From assembly GCA_947085505.1 (NCBI GenBank), contig CAMTWI010000004.1:129800-193799 (forward strand): DNA of 64,000 nucleotides, written 5' to 3'. This DNA comes from an uncultured bacterium. GTDB lineage: Bacteria > Patescibacteriota > Minisyncoccia > Phycocordibacterales > Phycocordibacteraceae. How positions within the stretch are numbered: the stretch's first letter is position 1; each line of letters starts with the position of its first letter. Below the pieces are notes generated by a model. That model was not told where the DNA came from, did not search any database, and saw nothing but the letters and a program-made list of their open reading frames with translations. Of the stretch, positions 4,300 to 24,768 are shown one piece after another. The position numbers and the translations under genes were made by a program.

Positions 4300-4338
4300 C
4301 AATGGCCGTGGCATTCGCTACGGCCATTGACTTTTATG
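4300..4338 (+). terminator. intrinsic terminator after dnaK
   Basis: CAATGGCCGT / ACGGCCATTG stem followed by ACTTTTATG. Confidence 0.7.
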
Positions 4339-4355
4339 TTCTTATGGTGTATTAT
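4327..4355 (+). promoter_or_regulatory. sigma70-type promoter for the 4409 gene
   Basis: TTGACT (4327-4332), 17 nt spacer, TATTAT (4350-4355). The downstream leader carries a GGAG SD. Confidence 0.6.
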
Positions 4356-4408
4356 TGTATTAACGTTACTTGGGTCCCTCAGGGGACACGCAACACGGAG
4401 ATCCTTTA

Positions 4409-4792
4409 ATGACCAGCATCAAAGTACTCGGACTCGCGGCGTTCGCGGTTATGGTCTTCGCGACCAGCGCTTCGGCGCAATCTGTGACGCCCGATCCTTC
4501 GACCTGCACTGACGTGCAGGTCGGGGGCAAGCGCTTCATGCGCTGTCCGGACGGTCACTCATACGAGTGGCAAACGATAAACAATCGCAGTGTTTTGGTA
4601 CGGATTCAAACCCTTACCAATCCGTATGACGCGGATCGTCTGCGAGACGCCGAGCGGTACCAGAACCAGTACGGCTACTACTACGCCTTCCCGGACACTC
4701 GCTTTGGCAGAGACCCGTGTGAGCGGAGGAGTCAAATTACCGGCCGGCCCGTCATCTCCGAAAGGTGCGATCGGGCACGTCGTGGCTACTGA
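4409..4792 (+). CDS. secreted hypothetical protein
   Basis: Internal Met with a GGAG SD. Signal peptide MTSIKVLGLAAFAVMVFATSASAQ. Has its own promoter and terminator between dnaK and dnaJ. Confidence 0.6.
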   Translation: MTSIKVLGLAAFAVMVFATSASAQSVTPDPSTCTDVQVGGKRFMRCPDGHSYEWQTINNRSVLVRIQTLTNPYDADRLRDAERYQNQYGYYYAFPDTRFGRDPCERRSQITGRPVISERCDRARRGY

Positions 4793-4816
4793 AAACACTC
4801 CGACTACGAGTGTGAT

Positions 4817-6027: not shown

Positions 6028-6534
6028 ATGGATGTCGTTAACCAGTTTGCAACCGGCGGGTTTGGATCAATTGTGACCTTCTTCGGGAACTTCCTTGTTC
6101 TTGTTGTTATAGCGGCGCTACTGTTCTTCTTTGCGCTTCGTGCGGGGCGAGCGATGCTCATTTCTCTTATACTCGCCCTCTATGTAGGATTCGCACTCTT
6201 TACGGTATTTCCGTACAAGGAGATGTTTCTTGTAGGGGACTCTGCACTTGTTCGGGCAGTTGCCGGAATCACACTCTTTGCAGTGTTTACCTTCTTCCCG
6301 TACATACTTCTCCGGCGGGTTGCCACGTCTGGCTCTATGCGAATTAATCCCATAGTGCTTTCTCTCCTTGCTCTTGTTACCGGGGGCTTCGTACTAGCGC
6401 TCGGGTATCACGTACTTGATATTGCAGCAGTTATCCCGCTTACCCCGTCTCTTGATGCTCTGTTTGCACCAGACAAGTACTTCTTCTGGTGGTTTGTAGC
6501 ACCAATGATCGGCGTGTACGCTACAGCCCGTTAA
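6028..6534 (+). CDS. multi-pass membrane protein, function unknown
   Basis: 168 aa with 4-5 hydrophobic helices. Confidence 0.6.
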   Translation: MDVVNQFATGGFGSIVTFFGNFLVLVVIAALLFFFALRAGRAMLISLILALYVGFALFTVFPYKEMFLVGDSALVRAVAGITLFAVFTFFPYILLRRVATSGSMRINPIVLSLLALVTGGFVLALGYHVLDIAAVIPLTPSLDALFAPDKYFFWWFVAPMIGVYATAR

Positions 6535-6582
6535 TTACACCACGTGCGGCTTTATGAAGTTCGTGGTATAATCCGAGGCTCT

Positions 6583-8382
6583 ATGGAGTCTATAGAAAAG
6601 AAAAAGAAAGCGGTTCGCTCGGTGCCTGTGCTTCGAGCGTATTTTTCCGCTGGAAAGAAGTATCCGTGGCTCGTTACTTCGCTTCTTCTCGGCAGCTTCC
6701 TTATAGAAATTGCAGGCGTCATCTCTCCGCTGTTTATCAAGCAGTTTATAGACCAGATCTCTGAAGGAGATGTCTCTGACGGAGTTGCATATGGACTCTT
6801 TGTAATACTCGGATTCTACGGACTTACCATGCTCATGGGGTGGATCGGACGCCGTATCCAGATGCTCTCCATGATGTATCTCGAGGCGAAGGTGATGGTC
6901 GACCTATACAACAAAGCATTCGCCTACCTTATTGGTCATTCCCACGACTTCTTTACAAAGAACTTCGCAGGATCGTTACAGCGTCGTATAAGCAGGTATG
7001 CGCAGTCCTTTGAGTCGGTTGTTGACATCTTTACGTTCAGTTTCTTTTCAACCGCGGTCTTCTCGGTGGGTGTGATTATCGTCCTTATCCAGCGGAATAT
7101 TTATATCGGGCTCGGGATCCTCGTATGGACGATCCTGTTCATCTGGATACAGATGGTTATGACAAAGTGGCGACAGCCGCTTCGTGTTAAGCGTGCAGCG
7201 GAGGAAAGTAATGTCACGGGTGTGCTTTCAGATTCCGTAAGTAACCAGTCAACCATAAGCCTGTTTGCAGCAGACCGACATGAACGCAGTATCCTTGGCA
7301 ACGCTCTCGGAAAGTGGTACCGCGCGACCATGAAATCATGGACTGCAGATGTATGGATCATGGGCGTTCAGGGGATCTTCGCGATCATCATAGAACTCGC
7401 GCTCCTCGGTGGTGCCGTACTGCTCTGGCAGCAAGGCCTCATCACTATTGGTGACTTCGTACTCATCCAGGTTTACATCATTGGGCTTGTTGACCGCGTG
7501 TGGGGAATCGGGAGTTCTATGCGCCGCCTCTTTACGGCGCTTGCGGATGCAAACGAGATGGTAGAGATATTCGACACACCGCATGCGGTCATGGATGCTC
7601 CAGACGCAAGGCCGCTCATTGTCCGGAACGGCGAGATACGCGCAGAGAATGTATCCTTTGGGTTCAACGAGGAACGCATCATTCTCAAGAGCTTCACGCT
7701 AAACGTTAGTGCGGGCGAGAAGGTGGCACTCGTAGGCCCTTCGGGAGCTGGTAAGTCCACCGTAACAAAGCTCCTTCTGCGCATGTACGACGTGACCAGC
7801 GGATCGATTCGCGTTGATGGGCAGGATATCGCAAAAGTCACCCAGGAGAGTCTTAGAGAGAACATCTCCTTCGTTCCGCAGGAACCTATTCTGTTCCATC
7901 GCTCTTTGCGAGACAATATACGCTACGGACGCCCTGAAGCGACCGACGAAGAAGTTATCGATGCTGCGAAGAAAGCTCACTGTCATGAGTTCATCGCATC
8001 GCTTGCCGAAGGGTACGAGACGCACGTGGGAGAACGAGGCGTGAAGCTATCAGGAGGCGAGCGTCAGCGCGTCGCCATCGCTCGTGCCATCCTTAAGAAT
8101 GCGCCGATTCTTATTCTGGACGAGGCAACATCTGCTCTTGATTCAGAGTCCGAGGCACTCATTCAGGACGCCCTTCGAGTTCTGATGGAAGGTAAGACGG
8201 TTATTGTTATTGCACATCGACTCTCTACCATCATGACCATGGACCGCATTATCGTTATTGAGGGCGGAAAGATTGCTGCTGAGGGAACCCATGACGAGCT
8301 CGTGACCCATAAGGGTGGTCTGTATCAGAAGCTGTGGAGCATCCAAGCGGGCGGGTTCCTTGACGACAGCAAGACGGTATAG
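6583..8382 (+). CDS. ABC transporter, fused permease and ATP-binding protein (MsbA-like exporter type)
   Basis: Six-TM N-terminal half. Walker A GPSGAGKST, signature LSGGERQR, Walker B ILILDEATS. Start at the Met after TGgTATAAT (6564-6572). Confidence 0.9.
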   Translation: MESIEKKKKAVRSVPVLRAYFSAGKKYPWLVTSLLLGSFLIEIAGVISPLFIKQFIDQISEGDVSDGVAYGLFVILGFYGLTMLMGWIGRRIQMLSMMYLEAKVMVDLYNKAFAYLIGHSHDFFTKNFAGSLQRRISRYAQSFESVVDIFTFSFFSTAVFSVGVIIVLIQRNIYIGLGILVWTILFIWIQMVMTKWRQPLRVKRAAEESNVTGVLSDSVSNQSTISLFAADRHERSILGNALGKWYRATMKSWTADVWIMGVQGIFAIIIELALLGGAVLLWQQGLITIGDFVLIQVYIIGLVDRVWGIGSSMRRLFTALADANEMVEIFDTPHAVMDAPDARPLIVRNGEIRAENVSFGFNEERIILKSFTLNVSAGEKVALVGPSGAGKSTVTKLLLRMYDVTSGSIRVDGQDIAKVTQESLRENISFVPQEPILFHRSLRDNIRYGRPEATDEEVIDAAKKAHCHEFIASLAEGYETHVGERGVKLSGGERQRVAIARAILKNAPILILDEATSALDSESEALIQDALRVLMEGKTVIVIAHRLSTIMTMDRIIVIEGGKIAAEGTHDELVTHKGGLYQKLWSIQAGGFLDDSKTV

Positions 8383-14624: not shown

Positions 14625-14700
14625 TGGGGTGGGTAAGGGGAATCGAACCCCCGACATTCGCGGTCACAGTGCGACGCTCTACCACTGAGCTATACCCACC
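14625..14700 (-). tRNA. tRNA-His (GTG)
   Basis: Hand-folded cloverleaf: encoded G-1, acceptor GTGGGTA/TACCCAC, anticodon loop CTGTGAC, T arm GGGGG-TTCGATT-CCCCT, discriminator C, encoded CCA. Confidence 0.9.
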
Positions 14701-14776: not shown

Positions 14777-15244
14777 TTATGCCTTTCGGGCGGCAAAGAC
14801 GTACCGTTTGCCCCAGTTATTTCTATACCAGATAGTGTACAGATGGCGTCTCTTCTGCAAATGAACGACGCACACCTGTTCACGTGTACCAGGTACTCTC
14901 CACAGATTGTCCGTATGGAGAAAAACAACCGGCAAATCATGTAAGCCGAGCGGTGACGCGATTGTGAAGCGAAGCGCGTCTTGCTCGGTAGGTTGTACTA
15001 GTCCAAGCCTAGAGAAAGTAGCGAGAACTTCGTCAGTGCTTGGCTCGTGATGAAACTGCACGAGAACGAGTACATTATCCCTGGGTTGCTCGGTCATCCT
15101 GAAGCTTTCAGATGCGACGAACTCGCGGGCAAGTGGACCGGCCAAATCGAATTTCGCCCTTTGGAACAGGTCTTCTTGAACTTCAGGTCGAAGTCTTATC
15201 TCCTGTATTACGGGAGACTGTATCGTAACGTGTGACGCAACCAT
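14777..15244 (-). CDS. hypothetical protein
   Basis: 155-aa ORF with its own terminator; no recognisable motif. Confidence 0.5.
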   Translation of the reverse strand: MVASHVTIQSPVIQEIRLRPEVQEDLFQRAKFDLAGPLAREFVASESFRMTEQPRDNVLVLVQFHHEPSTDEVLATFSRLGLVQPTEQDALRFTIASPLGLHDLPVVFLHTDNLWRVPGTREQVCVVHLQKRRHLYTIWYRNNWGKRYVFAARKA

Positions 15245-20700: not shown

Positions 20701-21354
20701 TCAGGATGATTGATTAGTTTCTTTTGTTACTCGTTTACGTTGGATTCTCGTAAGCTTCGGGAGCGTTCCAGAAGCACGATAGCGCTCCCAGATAGGTTCC
20801 CAGTCCTCACGGAAGCACTCGAGTATGATCACGTCGACATACGCGCCTTCATGGAAGTCATGTGCCTTCCTACGGCCGACAATCTTGTACCCGCACTTCA
20901 GAAGGTGTCCGAGACTAGGTGCATTGAATGCCTTCACCTCGGACAGCAGTTTGCGCAGACCAAGGACTTTGAATGCGTGATACTGTATCCAGAGTTTTGC
21001 TTCAGTACCGTATCCTTTCTCGCGCGCGTTATCCGCGCCGAGAACGGAGCCGGTTGTGGCATGGCCCGAAGGCCACTCAACATGATGTATGCCCGCATGT
21101 CCGAGATACCGGTACCCACGGCCTGTCTCCGTGTCCTCATGTGCAAGGACTGCGAAGACTTCGTGTACCCCCTTGCTCTTGCGGAGCCTCTCTATCCACT
21201 CGTCGAAGTCTTCGGGATAGTAGGGTGGGCGCTGAAGCGTACCGTTGATTGCGGTACGCCGGTTAGGCCACGGCAGGTACTCAGGCCCATACATACGTTG
21301 CATCAATGCCAGCGACATAGTGATGCCTTTGTAGACGATGATATGACTAGACAT
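20701..21354 (-). CDS. GNAT family N-acetyltransferase (RimJ/RimL-like)
   Basis: 217 aa from MSSHIIVYKG with a CAGGAG SD. GNAT core pattern (ARGKGYG-like AREKGYGTEA...AFNAPSLGHLLKCGYKIVG). Confidence 0.75.
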   Translation of the reverse strand: MSSHIIVYKGITMSLALMQRMYGPEYLPWPNRRTAINGTLQRPPYYPEDFDEWIERLRKSKGVHEVFAVLAHEDTETGRGYRYLGHAGIHHVEWPSGHATTGSVLGADNAREKGYGTEAKLWIQYHAFKVLGLRKLLSEVKAFNAPSLGHLLKCGYKIVGRRKAHDFHEGAYVDVIILECFREDWEPIWERYRASGTLPKLTRIQRKRVTKETNQSS

Positions 21355-21541
21355 ACTATTCTCCTGTAAGGAACGTGCTCTGCTCACAAAACGAGAAAAC
21401 CTCGGCTTCTGCAGAGCCGAGGTTTTTCTTTACGAGGGTGTGGGGAAAGAAGAATCGCGGCTATGCATAAGCAACAGAAAAGGCGAGGTCACGAGAGACC
21501 TTCGTCATAATCTGCTTTGCATTGCCGCGGTTGTTCATAAC
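21355..21541 (-). promoter_or_regulatory. candidate structured 5' leader/attenuator of the GNAT gene
   Basis: A predicted minus-strand promoter (TTGACA at 21570-21575, 16 nt spacer, TATTGT at 21548-21553) gives an ~187-nt leader. The leader contains a long imperfect hairpin and an intrinsic terminator ~45 nt before the start codon. Confidence 0.4.
21396..21432. terminator. hairpin with U-tracts on both strands, located between divergent genes
   Basis: AAAACCTCGGCT-TCTGCAG-AGCCGAGGTTTT. TTTTTCTTT follows on the plus strand and TTCTCGTTTTG on the minus strand. Confidence 0.55.
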
Positions 21542-21578
21542 AAATCCACAATAGCGATAACTGAGTTTTTGTCAAGTA

Positions 21579-21588
21579 CTGCTATAGT
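21579..21588 (+). promoter_or_regulatory. extended -10 promoter, near-leaderless tyrS
   Basis: TGcTATAGT, then 7 nt to the ATG at 21596. Confidence 0.5.
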
Positions 21589-21595
21589 CATTGCA

Positions 21596-22846
21596 ATGAA
21601 TCTTGCAGAAGAACTCGAAGCACGCGGGCTCATAGAGCACGTCTCAGCACCAATAGAAACAATCCTTAAGGAGAAGCGAACGGTATACCTCGGCGTTGAT
21701 CCGTCTGCAGACTCCATGCATGCCGGGAACCTGCTCGTAGTGCTTATGATGAAGCGCTTAGCGCTTGCAGGACATAAAATTATGCTCCTTGTCGGTGGCG
21801 GGACCGGCATGATTGGCGACCCTCGCGAGAGTGGCGAGCGCGTACTTTCTGACCAAAAGGTTGTAGAAAAGAACAAGAAGGCTCTCAAAGTCCAGATGCA
21901 GCGGATTGTGGGAACGAACGTAACCGTTGTCGACAATGCTGACTGGCTTCTTAAGGTACACCTTATCGATTTCCTCAGGGACATCGGGAAGCATTTTACG
22001 GTTAATGAGCTTATAAAGCGCGACATCATAAAGCGCAGGCTCGAGAATCCAGACGACAGTATCTCGTATACTGAGTTCGCATACTCCCTGCTTCAGGGCT
22101 ACGACTACCTCGTCCTGAACAAGGAGAAGGGGGTTGATCTTCAGGTTGGTGCAAGTGACCAATGGACCAACATCCTTTCCGGCGTTGAACTTATCCGCCG
22201 GAAAGAAGGAAAGACTGCCTACGCGCTCACAACCCCACTCGTTACGGACTCAACAGGTAAGAAGTTCGGCAAGTCAGAAGGAAACGCTATTTGGCTCGAT
22301 GCGGAAAAGACTTCGCCGTATGCCTTCTATCAGTTTTGGCTCAATCAACCGGACGACATGGTTGGGAAGTACCTCAAGATGTTTACGTTCCTTCCAATTG
22401 ATGAGATTGATACGCTTCTTGATTGGCACAAAGACAATGCGCAAACACGCAAAGCACAGCGCACACTCGCACACGCCGTTACAGAGCTCGTACACGGCAC
22501 AAAGGCAGCCGACGCAGCAGCATCAGCTTCTAGCGCCCTCTTTGGCGAGATGGTGCTTTCTGAACTTGATCAAGGAGCACGTTTGGTTGTACTCAAGGAG
22601 GCTCCGACACTCACAATCCTTAGAAAGGACATCATAGGCGGATTAACCATTCTTGACACCCTCGCCACAAGCCCGCTCAGCTCTTCTAAGGGCGATGCGC
22701 GCCGGCTTATAGAAGGAAAGGGTGTGAGCTTGAATGGCACAGCGGTTGATACTCTAGATCAGAAGCTTGCTGAGGGGCACTTCTCAGGAGGTCTCGCGCT
22801 CCTTAAGAAGGGCAAGCGGGATGTAGTTATCCTTATCCTCAAATAG
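21596..22846 (+). CDS. tyrS: tyrosine--tRNA ligase
   Basis: Start at MNLAEELEARGLIEH. HAGN (HIGH-like), KFGKSEG (KMSKS-like), C-terminal S4-like domain. Confidence 0.95.
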   Translation: MNLAEELEARGLIEHVSAPIETILKEKRTVYLGVDPSADSMHAGNLLVVLMMKRLALAGHKIMLLVGGGTGMIGDPRESGERVLSDQKVVEKNKKALKVQMQRIVGTNVTVVDNADWLLKVHLIDFLRDIGKHFTVNELIKRDIIKRRLENPDDSISYTEFAYSLLQGYDYLVLNKEKGVDLQVGASDQWTNILSGVELIRRKEGKTAYALTTPLVTDSTGKKFGKSEGNAIWLDAEKTSPYAFYQFWLNQPDDMVGKYLKMFTFLPIDEIDTLLDWHKDNAQTRKAQRTLAHAVTELVHGTKAADAAASASSALFGEMVLSELDQGARLVVLKEAPTLTILRKDIIGGLTILDTLATSPLSSSKGDARRLIEGKGVSLNGTAVDTLDQKLAEGHFSGGLALLKKGKRDVVILILK

Positions 22847-22880
22847 TACACAACTTTTATAGTGCTCTGTCTTCCGGAGG

Positions 22881-22889
22881 TGCCATACT
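22881..22889 (+). promoter_or_regulatory. extended -10 promoter, leaderless start at 22896
   Basis: TGcCATACT, then 6 nt to the ATG. Confidence 0.5.
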
Positions 22890-22895
22890 TTCTGT

Positions 22896-23678
22896 ATGGC
22901 TAGGAGATGGAATCTACAGGAAGAGAACTTCTACCGAGAGGAACTACTGGAATTTTACGTTCGGCAGAATATGTCTATACGTGAAGTTGGCATAGCACTT
23001 TGTATTCCAGAGGGCACGGTCTTCGACCGGCTGCAACGGCTATCTGTGCAAACATGCCCTGAGCGTAAATCAAACTATCTTCGAAAGAGAAGTGATATTC
23101 ATATTCCCCATGAGCGATCAAGGAATCTCGCTGAGTTTTTCGGAATCATGCTTGGCGACGGGCATGTATCGCCATATCAAACCATAGTGACTCTGGGCAC
23201 TAAGGAATACGACTATGTGTGCTATGTACAGTGGCTCATGACCAGCCTATTTGGGGCTCCTGCAACCATTAATCTCAAGGGGTCTGGATATCATGATGTC
23301 TATATCGGATCTATCGAGCTAACCCGATGGCTGTGCGCGGAAGGGCTCGTAGCAAACAAGGTCGCTGCGCAAGTAGGAGTACCGGCATGGATACTTGATT
23401 CACGCGAGTATATGCAGGCCTTCCTGCGAGGATTTTTCGATACTGATGGCTCGGTATATAAACTTCGTTTTGGTATCCAGCTATCATTTACTAATCGATC
23501 GATTCCGCTTCTGATTGCTTTACAGGCTATGTTGCGAAGGTTAGGATACCGAGTATCGGAGCTTAGTGTGTTTCGCATTTATATTACGCGACAAGACGAC
23601 GTAGAAAGATTCTTCGCCGAAATCCAGTCTATGAATACGAAGCATCAGGACCGATACAGACACTTGACGCGTCGGTAG
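22896..23678 (+). CDS. free-standing LAGLIDADG-family homing endonuclease-like protein with an N-terminal HTH
   Basis: Two LAGLIDADG-type motifs (FFGIMLGDGHV and LRGFFDTDGSV) about 100 aa apart. N-terminal HTH-like segment MSIREVGIALCIPEGTVFDRLQRL. The last 10 nt overlap tRNA-Tyr. Confidence 0.8.
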   Translation: MARRWNLQEENFYREELLEFYVRQNMSIREVGIALCIPEGTVFDRLQRLSVQTCPERKSNYLRKRSDIHIPHERSRNLAEFFGIMLGDGHVSPYQTIVTLGTKEYDYVCYVQWLMTSLFGAPATINLKGSGYHDVYIGSIELTRWLCAEGLVANKVAAQVGVPAWILDSREYMQAFLRGFFDTDGSVYKLRFGIQLSFTNRSIPLLIALQAMLRRLGYRVSELSVFRIYITRQDDVERFFAEIQSMNTKHQDRYRHLTRR

Positions 23679-23754
23679 GTAAGTGGTCAAAACATGCAGG
23701 CTGTAAACCTGTCGCCTCACGGCTTCGGAGGTTCGAATCCTCCCCGGCGCACCA
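23669..23754 (+). tRNA. tRNA-Tyr (GTA), long variable arm
   Basis: Acceptor GCGTCGG/CCGGCGC, anticodon stem-loop GCAGG-CTGTAAA-CCTGT, 14-nt variable arm, T arm GGAGG-TTCGAAT-CCTCC, encoded ACCA. The D stem is weak in my hand fold. Confidence 0.85.
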
Positions 23755-23757
23755 CTG

Positions 23758-23782
23758 AAAAGGCCTCCCTGGAGGCCTTTTC
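23758..23782 (+). terminator. intrinsic terminator after tRNA-Tyr
   Basis: AAAGGCCTCC-CT-GGAGGCCTTTT. Confidence 0.75.
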
Positions 23783-23796
23783 GCGTCTCCTAGACG

Positions 23797-23805
23797 TGGT
23801 ATCGT
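23797..23805 (+). promoter_or_regulatory. extended -10 promoter, leaderless trpS
   Basis: TGgTATCGT, then 6 nt to the ATG at 23812. Confidence 0.5.
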
Positions 23806-23811
23806 AACGGT

Positions 23812-24768
23812 ATGGAATCAGACAAGCCTATTCTCCTCTCCGGTATCAAGCCGACCGGAGCCGCACACATTGGTAACTACTTTGGCGCAATCAAGCAGTG
23901 GAAGGAATTCCAGACTGTAGGGAGCCATCAGTGCTACTTCATGGTTGCTGACTACCATGCACTTAATTTTGTACAGAATGCTGGCGACATGCGGGACCTC
24001 ACGCATGAGCTCGTCTTAACCTACCTCGCTTCAGGTATCAATCCGGAGAAGGTAGTCTTGTTCAAGCAGTCTGACGTGCCGGCACACACGGAGCTCGCGT
24101 GGATATTCGACACCATCACAACCATGCCGTATCTCGAGCGTGCACACGCGTACAAGGACGCTGAAGCAAAGGGCAGAGAAGTATCCGTAGGTACCTTCAA
24201 CTACCCTATGCTTATGGCAGCCGACATCCTCCTCTACAACACAGCTAAAGTACCAGTCGGACATGATCAAAAGCAGCATATCGAGTACGCCCGCGATACA
24301 GCGGAGAAGTTCAACCGTATCTATGGCGACACCTTCACGCTTCCCGAGGAATTCATCATTCCTGAAGTTGCAACAGTGCCTGGTGTGGATGGACGCAAGA
24401 TGAGCAAGAGCTACAACAACACCATCCCACTATTCTCAACCCGTCACGAGATTGAAGAACTCGTTATGTCCATTGTTACGGACTCGTCCGGAGACCGACC
24501 AGAGAACGTGTACGCCATTCACCGGCTTCTTAAGACTGAACGTGAGCTTGATGCCCTCTATGACGAGCACCAGGGCCGCTACAAGGCACTGAAGGAAGCC
24601 CTTATCGAAGACCTCGATGCCTTTATTGCACCTATGCGAGAGAAGTATCATGAACTCGCATCAGATCCTCGTACCGTAGCAGACGTGCTCGAAAAGGGCG
24701 GGCAGCTTGCACGAGAGCGCGCGAACACCAAGATTGAGGAAGTGCGAAGGGCAGTAGGAGTCTCGTAG
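23812..24768 (+). CDS. trpS: tryptophan--tRNA ligase
   Basis: TGAAHIGNY (HIGH) and KMSKS motifs; 318 aa. Confidence 0.95.
   Translation: MESDKPILLSGIKPTGAAHIGNYFGAIKQWKEFQTVGSHQCYFMVADYHALNFVQNAGDMRDLTHELVLTYLASGINPEKVVLFKQSDVPAHTELAWIFDTITTMPYLERAHAYKDAEAKGREVSVGTFNYPMLMAADILLYNTAKVPVGHDQKQHIEYARDTAEKFNRIYGDTFTLPEEFIIPEVATVPGVDGRKMSKSYNNTIPLFSTRHEIEELVMSIVTDSSGDRPENVYAIHRLLKTERELDALYDEHQGRYKALKEALIEDLDAFIAPMREKYHELASDPRTVADVLEKGGQLARERANTKIEEVRRAVGVS

Follow-up and report, generated by a model that had tools for sequence, protein, structure and literature searches.

What is a LAGLIDADG endonuclease gene doing between a tyrosyl-tRNA synthetase gene and the cognate tRNA gene, with its stop codon lying inside the tRNA? 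To our knowledge, homing endonuclease genes (HEGs) can survive in essential genes only when they are housed within self-splicing introns or inteins, the known exceptions being the intergenic HEGs of phages and the 'gene hybrid' ORFs of mitochondria. We analyzed this arrangement in the window, the whole 64,000-nt stretch of DNA under study, and compared it with related loci; all of the sequences derive from metagenome assemblies.

The tyrS–tRNA-Tyr locus and its endonuclease ORF

All features of the locus lie on the forward strand. The tyrS gene (21596 to 22846) encodes a tyrosyl-tRNA synthetase (TyrRS) of 416 aa (Pfam tRNA-synt_1b, 2.4e-75) and is a host gene that forms the left flank of the element. 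It is followed by a 49-nt spacer (22847 to 22895), which alignment with occupied and empty relatives assigns to the element, by a 260-aa ORF (22896 to 23678), and by a class II tRNA-Tyr(GTA) gene with an encoded CCA (23669 to 23754). A second host gene, trpS (23812 to 24768; tRNA-synt_1b, 1.7e-58), forms the right flank. We recovered the same coordinates for tyrS, the two-motif ORF and the tRNA as the preliminary description of this DNA, which also had the ORF run into the tRNA and proposed that the tRNA ends be verified. The tRNA begins at 23669 both in ARAGORN and in a search with the tRNA model of Rfam (50.9 bits, model positions 1-71), and ARAGORN ends it, including the CCA, at 23754. Because the tRNA starts at 23669 and the TAG stop codon of the ORF (23676 to 23678) corresponds to U8-A9-G10 of the tRNA, the 10-nt overlap (23669 to 23678) is real, and the first 10 nt of the tRNA double as the last ORF codons and the stop. 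The C-terminal tail encoded by the overlap is poorly conserved among orthologues.

A strong hairpin at 23754 to 23785 (−19.1 kcal/mol, z −4.8 by folding) provides an intrinsic terminator that closes the ORF-tRNA unit; it belongs to the host flank and is near-identical in the empty relative L088 and the occupied relative L008. Two weak 6-bp stems reported within the ORF by a terminator pattern scanner are regarded as noise, which leaves the single terminator 3′ of the tRNA that had been described. An intron- or intein-encoded endonuclease was rejected, in agreement with the earlier impression that the ORF lies outside such elements: a search of 21000-24500 at E ≤ 1 gave no group I or group II intron and no other RNA family, the tRNA is complete and contiguous by both ARAGORN and Rfam, and TyrRS is 416 aa long in occupied and empty relatives alike, so that insertion leaves tyrS uninterrupted. 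The linkage of tyrS to tRNA-Tyr had been called uncommon; it is unusual in general, but within this clade it is the conserved ground state, present at every assessable locus with a TyrRS identity of at least 57%.

The ORF matches Pfam LAGLIDADG_3 (2.4e-16) in two stretches. The first motif (LAEFFGIMLGDG; residues 78-89, nt 23127-23162) contains D88, as LAEFFGIMLGD88G, and the second (FLRGFFDTDGS; residues 176-186, nt 23421-23453) contains D184. Both aspartates, whose inspection had been suggested, are invariant together with K155 among 41-44 orthologues (41-93% identity), and a conserved lysine lies about 29 residues ahead of motif 2; D88 and D184 are the predicted catalytic residues. The AF2 model (pLDDT 92.3) places a three-helix HTH at the N-terminus (approximately residues 7-48, nt 22914-23039), and the model and Foldseek together reveal tandem alpha-beta-beta-alpha-beta-beta-alpha domains arranged as a DNA-binding saddle. 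Structurally, the model comes closest to homing endonucleases of inteins and archaeal introns and to I-DmoI (TliVMA intein endonuclease domain, 4e-11; I-Tsp061I, 3.5e-10; I-DmoI, ~3e-7), with bI3, I-AniI and WhiA (8dy9_I) also among the matches, and the nearest PDB sequence is again the TliVMA endonuclease domain (7.8e-9). The ORF has 783 homologues, the best matches listed being about 260 aa long, and its GC3 is about 10 points lower than that of neighbouring genes (46% vs 55-60%). From its sequence and predicted structure, we infer that the ORF is an intact, free-standing, two-motif monomeric LAGLIDADG homing endonuclease gene whose product is predicted to cleave DNA.

Identity with WhiA was considered and rejected: LAGLIDADG_WhiA reaches 16.1 bits where 23.2 are required, WhiA_N and HTH_WhiA give no match, the HTH is N-terminal, and the aspartates are kept. 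Some sources label homologues of the ORF 'WhiA'.

Presence, absence and exchange among relatives

Comparison of the tyrS–tRNA-Tyr spacer in relatives, as the preliminary description had proposed, turned up empty, intact and decayed sites. Among tyrS-linked relatives, 19 sites are empty, with the tRNA 27-42 nt past the tyrS stop, and four carry intact copies; the ORF is frameshifted in L104 and L105 and reduced to remnants in L090, L111 and L126. L088 is empty at 91% TyrRS identity, passing from the tyrS stop through 29 nt to tRNA-Tyr (junction ...GGGCGTATT/GCGTCGGTGGTAGAGTGGTCAATTACAACAGGCTGTAAACC), L089 is empty at 89%, and the empty L117 and the occupied L118 have TyrRS sequences that are 90% identical. 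The site is thus fixed, and close relatives carry the element, lack it or hold a decayed copy.

By alignment, the 49-nt spacer is common to the occupied L008 and L001 and the decayed L090 and differs in the empty L088 and L089; it would accordingly be the element's own, standing in place of the native spacer (27-42 nt) and promoter that empty sites have. Within it, a TGcCATACT box (22881 to 22889) lies 6 nt before the ATG, and a comparable TGnYAnnnT box is found 4-9 nt ahead of the start codon at 30 of 48 orthologue loci. This family-wide conservation is consistent with a putative extended −10, leaderless promoter, which the preliminary description had also assigned to the ORF.

The ORF and the tRNA have a history unlike that of their host flanks. 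Between the window and L008, TyrRS and TrpRS are 92% and 96% identical, but the ORF and the tRNA only 74% and 76%. At the nucleotide level, identity to L008 averages about 84% in tyrS, is 86-93% from ~50 nt before the end of tyrS through the spacer into the start of the ORF, ranges from 51 to 83% from about 22916 to 23754, and is back to 88% from 23755, such that the divergent tract stops exactly at the 3′ end of tRNA-Tyr. TrpRS is 94-96% identical in L088 and L008. The tRNA-Tyr of the window is 100% identical to the ORF-adjacent allele of L001 (TyrRS 80%) but only 85-87% identical to the empty-site alleles of L088 and L089 (TyrRS 91% and 89%). In the sole empty-empty pair with TyrRS identity of at least 85% the tRNAs are identical, whereas in empty-occupied pairs they are 73-87% identical. 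The comparison with L008 and the tRNA shared with L001 both point to co-conversion of the flank, and the tRNA-Tyr gene appears to have been exchanged together with the ORF as one cassette (22916 to 23754) that comprises the ORF body and the entire tRNA.

Occupancy can also change without tRNA exchange, since L101 (empty) and L102 (occupied by another ORF family) have identical tRNAs. ORF identity drops broadly with taxonomic distance, from 74% to 44%, and much of the inheritance is therefore vertical; transfer of the ORF may occur mostly among relatives. In its distribution, its invariant aspartates, its low GC3 and its discordant history, the ORF has the behaviour of a selfish, mobile gene. 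Of the readings offered in the preliminary description, that of a free-standing homing endonuclease gene is favoured by the empty sites, the decayed copies, the invariant aspartates and the history unlike the flanks.

Association with the tRNA gene and a proposed homing route

The linkage partner of the ORF is tRNA-Tyr and not tyrS, because the gene upstream of the ORF-tRNA-Tyr unit varies and elsewhere is clpB, tRNA-Thr(UGU) or another gene. Of 46 orthologue loci (41-74% identity), 45 have the ORF stop inside tRNA-Tyr(GTA) or no more than 8 nt ahead of it; relative to the stop, the tRNA starts anywhere between 8 nt downstream and 54 nt upstream, and the stop falls at tRNA position 4, 8, 13, 16, 20, 24, 29, 35/36 or 52, or 2-8 nt before +1. 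Same-strand tRNA starts occur within −120 to +45 nt of the stop of 76 of 83 family ORFs, compared with about 2% expected per ORF. Paralogous clades adjoin tRNA-Ser (bacteria) or tRNA-Gln (DPANN archaea), and protein clade corresponds to tRNA identity (Tyr, 43/45; Ser, 21/21; Gln, 5/7). The ORF is a member of a large group, apparently not described before, located on the 5′ ends of particular tRNA genes in Patescibacteria and DPANN archaea.

We consider it probable that the ORF is an active-looking, free-standing LAGLIDADG HEG that resides at the 5′ end of the tRNA-Tyr gene, from where it spreads by homing. The predicted enzyme would cut a tRNA-Tyr gene without the element, and the occupied copy would serve as the template for break repair. 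The ORF would be copied in along with the adjacent tRNA-Tyr allele by co-conversion, so that the cassette would consist of its own promoter, the leaderless ORF and a tRNA-Tyr allele. Because the ORF runs directly into the tRNA, one transcript ending at the terminator past the tRNA would carry both. RNase P, acting in ordinary tRNA 5′ processing, would then free a normal tRNA, which would make the insertion harmless without an intron or intein, and the same processing would remove the stop codon of the ORF.

The window carries a variant D-arm allele (T8 A9, GGTA/AACA D-stem), and 10 of the 19 differences between it and the L088 tRNA-Tyr fall in positions 9-28. The canonical GGTGGYRGAGYGGTCAAT D-arm occurs at 17 of 19 empty sites, the non-canonical ones being L108 and L128, and in none of eight ORF-linked tRNAs (Fisher p = 2e-5, a value that ignores kinship). 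The dead copy in L090 is linked to the canonical allele. In addition, a canonical tRNA-Tyr 5′ fragment (positions 1-26/28) is found 28-31 nt before the ATG at 29 of 48 orthologue loci (p ≤ 0.01 each), with TGnTAnnAT between it and the ATG. Most other family members have the tRNA-Tyr D-arm box TAGAGTGGTC ahead of the ORF, the upstream copies in L013 and L040 include the acceptor strand from position 1, and an equivalent fragment layout, with a TATA box in place of the −10, is present in the tRNA-Ser and archaeal tRNA-Gln clades.

At the level of the family, these fragments suggest insertion inside the tRNA by an element that carries a replacement 5′ segment. The element would lie within the tRNA gene at about position 26/27, and its 3′ end would supply a new copy of tRNA positions 1-26; the host's own 5′ fragment, displaced, would be left upstream, its TTGCAA serving as a −35 box, and the replacement D-arm, differing from the canonical one, would protect the occupied allele from cutting. 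In the window, neither local alignment (p = 0.77) nor an nhmmer profile search detected an upstream tRNA fragment, and none is detectable in L008 and L001, the nearest occupied relatives; for these loci the inside-tRNA architecture is therefore extrapolated from other members. The window's TATAGTGCTC (22858 to 22867) resembles the spacer of L010 (TACACA-N5-TAGAGTGGTT) by eye, with the same p of 0.77 and no nhmmer match, and is an uncertain candidate for a decayed D-arm remnant. The proposal in the preliminary description that the ORF invaded the tyrS–tRNA-Tyr spacer has to be amended, as in many family members the element looks inserted in the tRNA, at about position 26/27, and not in a spacer.

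We see even chances for the broader claim that tRNA genes of Patescibacteria and DPANN archaea (Tyr, Gln and several Ser isoacceptors) house homing elements of an undescribed class that has neither intron nor intein. Each would combine a promoter, a leaderless LAGLIDADG ORF and replacement tRNA positions 1-26 at the D-arm/anticodon-stem junction, would depend on tRNA 5′ processing with no splicing, and would owe its immunity to the divergent D-arm.

The upstream D-arm box is more conserved than expected of a neutral remnant. It may be a selected promoter or operator, instead of or besides a displaced fragment.

The window's own layout, in which the element spans from the tyrS stop to tRNA +1 with no detectable tRNA fragment, would also suit a simple HEG located just upstream of tRNA +1. 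Its target would be the leader/tRNA 5′ junction, destroyed by insertion; the D-arm-like box would be a promoter or operator acquired by target duplication or mimicry for autoregulation, and the variant tRNA alleles would reflect donor co-conversion, not immunity. Woesebacteria-type loci (L044-L047) likewise lack the fragment and have the ORF stop 2-5 nt before the tRNA, and the box, which keeps a constant distance and is strongly conserved, provides a −35 (TTGCAA), as a selected regulatory element would. We nevertheless judge this arrangement unlikely, as the acceptor strand from position 1 in the L013 and L040 upstream copies is not needed by any promoter, the layout has arisen independently with fragments of tRNA-Ser and of archaeal tRNA-Gln, and absence of the canonical D-arm from all eight ORF-linked tRNAs is expected if that D-arm is part of the target.

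The intact ORFs of about 260 aa, well conserved in several Patescibacteria classes and declining in identity with taxonomic distance, could instead be domesticated, vertically inherited HTH-LAGLIDADG proteins that bind DNA, regulate tRNA-Tyr or the aminoacyl-tRNA synthetase cluster in the manner of WhiA, and stay by the tRNA only because overlapping genes are inseparable. WhiA has a degenerate LAGLIDADG scaffold without the catalytic acidic residues and a C-terminal HTH. The ORF resembles it in joining a LAGLIDADG scaffold to an HTH, in weak sub-threshold Pfam matches, in the structural match to 8dy9_I and in the name given to some homologues; it differs in its N-terminal HTH, in scoring below the WhiA cut-offs and in the aspartates, which are invariant throughout the family. 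The ORF is moreover missing from the nearest relatives (the 19 empty sites) and decayed in others, its tract is discordant with the flanks, and each paralogous clade is tied to a different tRNA. The domesticated regulator or maturase that the preliminary description had entertained does not sit with a gene that is dispensable in the nearest relatives and decays, and we regard a regulatory role as quite improbable. An RNA-acting protein, that is, a factor translated from the leader of the pre-tRNA that specifically helps tRNA-Tyr to mature or fold, is scarcely credible: ORF and tRNA probably share one transcript (single terminator), LAGLIDADG maturases for introns exist and bI3 and I-AniI are among the structural matches, but tRNA-Tyr of the same kind is produced in close relatives that lack the ORF, the DNA-cleavage residues are conserved, and the search of 21000-24500 at E ≤ 1 found no intron or unusual RNA element.

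Implications and relation to known homing systems

As a mobile HEG at the tRNA-Tyr 5′ end, the locus suggests that cellular genomes hold a third solution, in which an element occupies the 5′ end of a tRNA gene, the tRNA is brought along or restored, and processing removes the rest. If confirmed, this would explain the strikingly different tRNA-Tyr alleles among closely related ultra-small bacteria, show horizontal replacement of a single-copy essential tRNA, link bacterial and archaeal episymbiont lineages by a shared type of mobile element, and offer a natural set of meganucleases whose targets are readable from empty sites. If the tRNA-internal class is real, selfish endonucleases would be the force behind an unusually rapid, compensatory evolution of essential tRNA genes and behind their horizontal replacement, and removal of the stop codon from the endonuclease mRNA by RNase P could limit expression of the enzyme. 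For annotation, gene callers may drop these ORFs because they overlap tRNAs, and some sources list them as WhiA.

In its fold, its two LAGLIDADG helices ending in Asp and the Lys before motif 2, the predicted enzyme resembles PI-SceI, TliVMA, I-Tsp061I and I-DmoI. Unlike these, it is encoded outside an intein or intron, has an extra N-terminal HTH, and shares only 13-24% identity with them.

Among the intergenic Seg and Mob HEGs of T-even phages, the HEG and the markers that flank it are preferentially inherited together, the site that is cut is in or close to the conserved neighbour gene of HEG-less genomes, and the HEG-bearing genome is spared by sequence differences. These are GIY-YIG or HNH proteins in phage genomes, and SegB sits in the T4 tRNA gene cluster. 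The tRNA-Tyr ORF shares the tie to tRNA genes and would share the co-inheritance with its flank, the kind of target and the sparing of the occupied genome, but it is a LAGLIDADG enzyme in a cellular chromosome, overlaps a single essential tRNA-Tyr gene, and belongs to a family with lineage-specific clades for different tRNAs. Such 'intronless homing' is the subject of two reviews (PMC2988022, PMC2790892), and SegB that of a further paper (PMC13096335).

In CPR bacteria, LAGLIDADG endonucleases are encoded within insertion sequences and group I introns of rRNA genes that are removed from the rRNA (PMC11270868; the word 'tRNA' is absent from this paper). The phylum, the enzyme superfamily and the logic of targeting a highly conserved RNA gene are the same; unlike the tRNA-Tyr ORF, those enzymes reside inside rRNA genes.

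The mobile endonuclease ORFs of fungal mitochondria (mORFs) carry a duplicate gene terminus and form 'gene hybrids' in atp6 of Allomyces macrogynus and in atp6, atp9, cox2 and nad3 of Glomus (PMC3630166). As in those hybrids, a free-standing LAGLIDADG ORF (in fungi also GIY-YIG) would occupy a host gene without an intron or intein, the element would bring a foreign, divergent copy of the displaced segment that keeps the host gene functional, and presence is patchy with signs of horizontal transfer. The native segment would likewise be kept alongside and match close relatives: a canonical fragment is present at 29 of 48 orthologue loci, and the searches of the window gave p = 0.77 and no nhmmer match. 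The elements described here differ in that the host gene is a tRNA and not protein-coding, the hosts are Patescibacteria and DPANN archaea and not mitochondria, the duplication would involve the 5′ part (positions 1-26) and lie at the 3′ end of the element, a mirror image of the fungal C-terminal duplications, and the displaced fragment is apparently re-used as the element's −35 box.

The tRNA-Tyr locus and its LAGLIDADG protein

The 260-aa ORF (22896-23678; LAGLIDADG_3, 2.4e-16) follows tyrS (21596-22846; Pfam tRNA-synt_1b, 2.4e-75) after a 49-nt spacer and runs into tRNA-Tyr(GTA) (23669-23754): its final 10 nt double as tRNA positions 1-10, and its TAG stop is tRNA U8-A9-G10. This overlap rests on the tRNA start at 23669, placed inside the ORF both by ARAGORN and by the Rfam tRNA model (full model covered, 50.9 bits), and the coordinates of the whole layout agree with the preliminary description. 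A TGcCATACT box (22881-22889) lies 6 nt 5′ of the ATG, and a strong hairpin past the tRNA (23754-23785; −19.1 kcal/mol, z −4.8, then UUUUCG), where a terminator had already been proposed, ends the ORF-tRNA unit before trpS (23812-24768) and aspS. As there is no room for a separate promoter and only a single terminator, we predict that ORF and tRNA are co-transcribed and that RNase P releases the tRNA; it is a matter of speculation that processing at tRNA +1 would strip the stop codon from the endonuclease mRNA. A candidate tRNA promoter within the 3′ end of the ORF (scanner call TTTACA-17-TAGGAT, 23519-23547) was set aside, as no consistent −10 was seen near the tRNA in other occupied loci.

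Elsewhere in the window, a strong hairpin resembling a bidirectional terminator (AAAACCTCGGCT...AGCCGAGGTTTT, 21396-21426) between a minus-strand ORF (20701-21387) and tyrS accounts for a weak Rfam 'FsrA' match (28 bits against an 80-bit cut-off). The minus-strand ORF upstream of tRNA-His, the window's other tRNA (ORF 14777-15244; tRNA at 14625-14699), is unrelated to the family, matching neither Pfam nor the family HMM.

A database search returned 783 homologues of the ORF protein; nearly all of the top matches listed are ~260 aa long, at 54-93% identity, and their sources are Patescibacteria, Kaiserbacteria and Wolfebacteria for example. Against 1.84 billion cluster representatives, a profile search yielded 283 clusters at E<=1e-30 and 1969 at E<=1e-10. 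The protein collection contains the exact TyrRS of the window (P0121, 100%), but the best match of the ORF among those listed is a 93%-identical cluster representative. Homologues are named 'WhiA' or 'intein/homing endonuclease' in some sources, and ORFs that overlap a tRNA may be under-called or mislabelled in databases.

Both motif aspartates, D88 (motif LAEFFGIMLGDG) and D184 (FLRGFFDTDGS), which the preliminary description had singled out as retained, are invariant in alignments of 41-44 orthologues, as are K155 and Q95 in both alignments and Q159 in the 44-sequence alignment. In the AF2 model (pLDDT 92.3) a linker joins a three-helix HTH at the N-terminus (residues 7-48) to two LAGLIDADG domains, and the best structural matches of the model are the TliVMA (Thermococcus litoralis VMA) intein endonuclease domain, the archaeal intron enzyme I-Tsp061I, WhiA and I-DmoI; PDB relatives found by sequence are intein endonuclease domains only (7.8e-9). 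From the conserved motifs, the modeled domains and these structural and PDB matches, the protein appears to be a monomeric LAGLIDADG enzyme with two motifs that is catalytically competent and carries an extra DNA-binding domain.

Empty, decayed and occupied sites

Relatives were found through TyrRS, independent of ORF presence, and the comparison of their tyrS-tRNA-Tyr spacers revealed empty sites. In L088, a relative with 91% TyrRS identity, the tyrS stop is followed by 29 nt, tRNA-Tyr (GCGTCGGTGGTAGAGTGGTCAATTACAACAGG...), the same terminator and trpS, and the ORF is absent; L089 (TyrRS 89%) is also empty. L090 (TyrRS 80%) contains a 47-aa C-terminal remnant of the ORF with an in-frame stop just 5′ of the tRNA. 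A scan of metagenome TyrRS genes found tRNA-Tyr downstream of tyrS at every assessable locus with at least 57% TyrRS identity: empty sites (tRNA 27-42 nt past the stop, 19), intact ORFs (4), truncated remnants (2), a frameshifted ORF on two contigs (L104, L105), a different ORF (5), other inserts (L110, L113) and an inverted tRNA (3). Empty sites have a near-consensus promoter, TTGAAA[TAG/TAA]-N16/17-TATACT, that spans the tyrS stop and ends ~11 nt before tRNA +1 (e.g., L088:4236-4280), a position that predicts a pre-tRNA leader of only ~4-5 nt. At occupied sites this native spacer is swapped for the element's own.

The ORF and the adjacent tRNA have a history discordant with that of the flanking genes. 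Between the window and L008, one of its nearest occupied relatives, TyrRS is 92% and TrpRS 96% identical, as against 74% for the ORF and 76% for the tRNA. Nucleotide identity averages ~84% in tyrS, is 86-93% from ~50 nt before the end of tyrS through the spacer into the ORF start, falls to 51-83% from ~22916 to the final base of the tRNA, and is 88% from 23755. The window tRNA is 100% identical to the ORF-adjacent tRNA of L001, the other near occupied relative (TyrRS 80%, ORF 72%), and differs at 19 positions from another allele, common to L088, L089 and L090. Among pairs with at least 85% TyrRS identity, the single empty-empty pair has identical tRNAs, and the tRNAs of empty-occupied pairs are 73-87% identical; a second independent case is L117 (empty) and L118 (occupied), with TyrRS at 90% and tRNA at 82%. 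GC3 of the ORF is 46%, compared to 55-60% in neighboring genes.

Empty and decayed sites, together with the discordant ORF and tRNA history, form the classical signature of homing, a cycle of invasion, decay and loss in which the adjacent tRNA would be co-converted. We consider it very probable that the ORF is a selfish homing-type LAGLIDADG gene and not a domesticated factor. Of the two possibilities first raised for it, the free-standing homing endonuclease gains from the empty, decayed and intact sites, and the domesticated regulator is disfavored by the empty relatives, the decayed copies and the invariant aspartates. Membership in WhiA, a transcription factor that pairs an HTH with a LAGLIDADG scaffold and is among the structural matches, was rejected: the ORF protein differs in having its HTH at the opposite, N-terminal end and in retaining the catalytic aspartates, and WhiA models score under their cut-offs. 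Residence in an intron or intein, which had not been apparent from the sequence in the preliminary description, was rejected in view of the intact tRNA and tyrS and of the Rfam search of 21000-24500 (E<=1), which detected no introns or other RNA families.

Other genes occupy the same site. A second ORF family (~205-215 aa; 306 homologues) lies directly 3′ of tyrS and abuts or overlaps tRNA-Tyr in five tyrS-linked metagenome loci (L095:3375-4016, L097, L102:3801-4424, L112, where the copy is fragmented, and L122:3901-4461) and in L091:4306-4950; L172:2501-3127 and L174:2501-3151 have it in the same place. Its junction with the tRNA is flush or has a 38-nt overlap stopping at the anticodon TAA. 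Homology to the LAGLIDADG family is confined to the N-terminal HTH (hhalign E 9e-6); the C-terminal domain, with invariant residues YW.EG.K, DF.NSD and G..H..Y.D, has neither a Pfam match nor a PDB match at E<1e-3. A single-motif LAGLIDADG assignment, suggested by MLYWAEGYK, was rejected on the AF2 topology (alpha-beta-alpha-beta-alpha-beta-beta-alpha), the lack of PDB matches at that threshold and the homology confined to the HTH. L101 (empty) and L102 (occupied), which differ by this second ORF, have 97% identical TyrRS and identical tRNAs. The spacer also holds a GIY-YIG-like mini-ORF in L110 (3814-3978; YVLRS...YIGGSTNLERRLLGHN), and L090 has two NYN-domain gene fragments (4300-4813) beside its LAGLIDADG remnant. 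Judging from these occupants, the tRNA-Tyr 5′ flank appears to be a hot spot for genes of this type.

Association of the family with tRNA genes

The ORF-into-tRNA-Tyr arrangement is found 3′ of tyrS (L001, L006) and, in Kaiserbacteria, 3′ of clpB (L003-L005): the ORF is partnered with the tRNA and not with tyrS. Scanning GTDB species genomes identified at least 45 full-length orthologue loci (41-74% identity), with MAG labels that include Nomura-, Vogel-, Zambryski-, Sungi-, Brenner- and Woesebacteria. A same-strand tRNA-Tyr(GTA) is present in 45/46 distinct orthologue loci, 44 called outright plus L049, whose tRNA was missed by ARAGORN and is placed by Rfam directly after the ORF stop; the sole exception, locus L034, ends at a contig edge. 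The stop lies either inside the tRNA (overlap 6-54 nt, at tRNA position 4, 8, 13, 16, 20, 24, 29, 35/36 or 52) or 2-8 nt before tRNA +1. In the orthologue alignment, conservation is poor over the tRNA-encoded C-terminal residues. The overlap appears to be an incidental result of the ORF abutting the tRNA and not a functional extension. At several loci, tRNA-Thr(UGU) lies 58-270 nt upstream, with tRNA-Thr(GGU) and tRNA-Trp downstream; this is the widespread thrU-tyrU-...-tRNA-Trp-rpmG neighborhood.

A same-strand tRNA also lies directly 3′ of 35 more distant matches (~30-36% identity, without the N-terminal HTH), namely tRNA-Ser in Patescibacteria (mostly GGA, also TGA, GCT and CGA) and tRNA-Gln in Woese- and Pacearchaeota. 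Protein clustering yields three clades by tRNA identity (Tyr, 43/45; Ser, 21/21; Gln, 5/7). In total, 76/83 family ORFs have a tRNA start within −120 to +45 nt of their stop, whereas the tRNA density of these loci predicts ~2% per ORF (binomial P ~1e-118). Homing endonuclease families typically have a lineage-specific tie to one conserved target.

The archaeal members (L056, L057, L063, L065 and L068; Woese-/Pacearchaeota) are located on tRNA-Gln (TTG or CTG). Upstream of the ORF, a tRNA-Gln 5′ fragment precedes a TTTATATA-like TATA box that stands ~25-30 nt from the start codon. DPANN archaea thus contain this type of element too, with an archaeal promoter. L003 additionally encodes a 186-aa LAGLIDADG_3 protein (7384-7944, minus strand) that departs from the family's upstream-of-tRNA rule, lying directly downstream of tRNA-Leu(CAA) (7963-8047, minus strand) and upstream of miaA (6470-7387, minus strand).

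Proposed target and insertion architecture, and relation to known elements

Empty-site tRNAs share the D-arm GGTGGYRGAGYGGTCAAT (17/19), which is found in 0/8 ORF-linked tRNAs (Fisher p = 2e-5, not corrected for phylogeny), and the dead ORF copy of L090 is linked to this canonical allele. Ten of the 19 differences between the window and L088 tRNAs fall at positions 9-28, and the window D-stem (23678-23694, positions 10-26) is weak: G10·A25, G11-C24, U12-A23, A13·A22. The window D-arm is kept in three ORF-adjacent tRNAs (L001, L104 and L139) and at one empty site (L128).

When the sequences 5′ of the start codon are lined up, most loci have a copy of the 5′ part of canonical tRNA-Tyr (e.g., GCGTCGGTGGCAGAGCGGTCAATTGCAA in L040, 2944-2971), significant in 29/48 loci (local alignment against shuffled controls, p<=0.01). 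The homology stops at tRNA position 26-28, 28-31 nt before the ATG. This upstream fragment resembles the canonical allele, unlike the variant tRNA downstream at the same locus. The aligned block (L012-L040 and others, ~28-60 nt upstream) consists of GGTAGAGTGGTCAATTGCAA, 13-15 nt, TGnTAnnAT, 6-7 nt and ATG, a spacing that would make the 3′ strand of the D-stem (TTGCAA) the −35 of an extended −10 promoter and the predicted mRNA leaderless. The block is more strongly conserved than would be expected of a neutral remnant and so may additionally serve the endonuclease as an operator.

The tRNA-Ser(GGA) clade has an analogous GGAGGCGTCGCATAGTGGTCTAGTGC fragment, inverted repeat and extended −10. 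In L061, L071, L073, L075, L079, L085 and L087 the fragment lies ~30-70 nt before the ORF start, and the inverted repeat, GGTCTAGT-N14-18-ACTAGACC, between the fragment and the −10 box, could form a hairpin or serve as a palindromic operator.

Local alignment and an nhmmer profile built from 24 loci found no upstream tRNA 5′ copy in the window, nor was a fragment detectable by these methods in L008 or L001; a 10-nt resemblance at 22858-22867 of the window is doubtful and unconvincing. On the simplest reading, the element would sit within the tRNA gene at about position 26/27, with its 3′ end supplying its own divergent copy of tRNA positions 1-26 and so restoring the gene; for the window locus this architecture is an extrapolation from other members. 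We lean slightly towards a target in canonical tRNA-Tyr near the junction of D-arm and anticodon stem, with the variant D-arm conferring immunity and the insertion inside the tRNA accompanied by a duplicated 5′ segment.

Our literature search, whose incomplete coverage leaves novelty unproven, found no description of LAGLIDADG genes abutting tRNA genes in CPR/DPANN, and tRNA is not mentioned in the main paper on CPR rRNA-insert endonucleases (PMC11270868). The parts are known: the LAGLIDADG homing endonuclease, free-standing homing with co-conversion, and gene-segment duplication. What appears new is their combination, with tRNA genes as hosts, replacement of the 5′ segment, a distribution that spans CPR bacteria as well as DPANN archaea, and tRNA alleles that are exchanged. 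Mobile ORFs of fungal mitochondria import a foreign version of the atp6, atp9, cox2 or nad3 C-terminus, and the native one stays behind as a remnant (PMC3630166); the logic of replaced segment plus remnant is alike, whereas members of the present family would duplicate the 5′ part of a tRNA.
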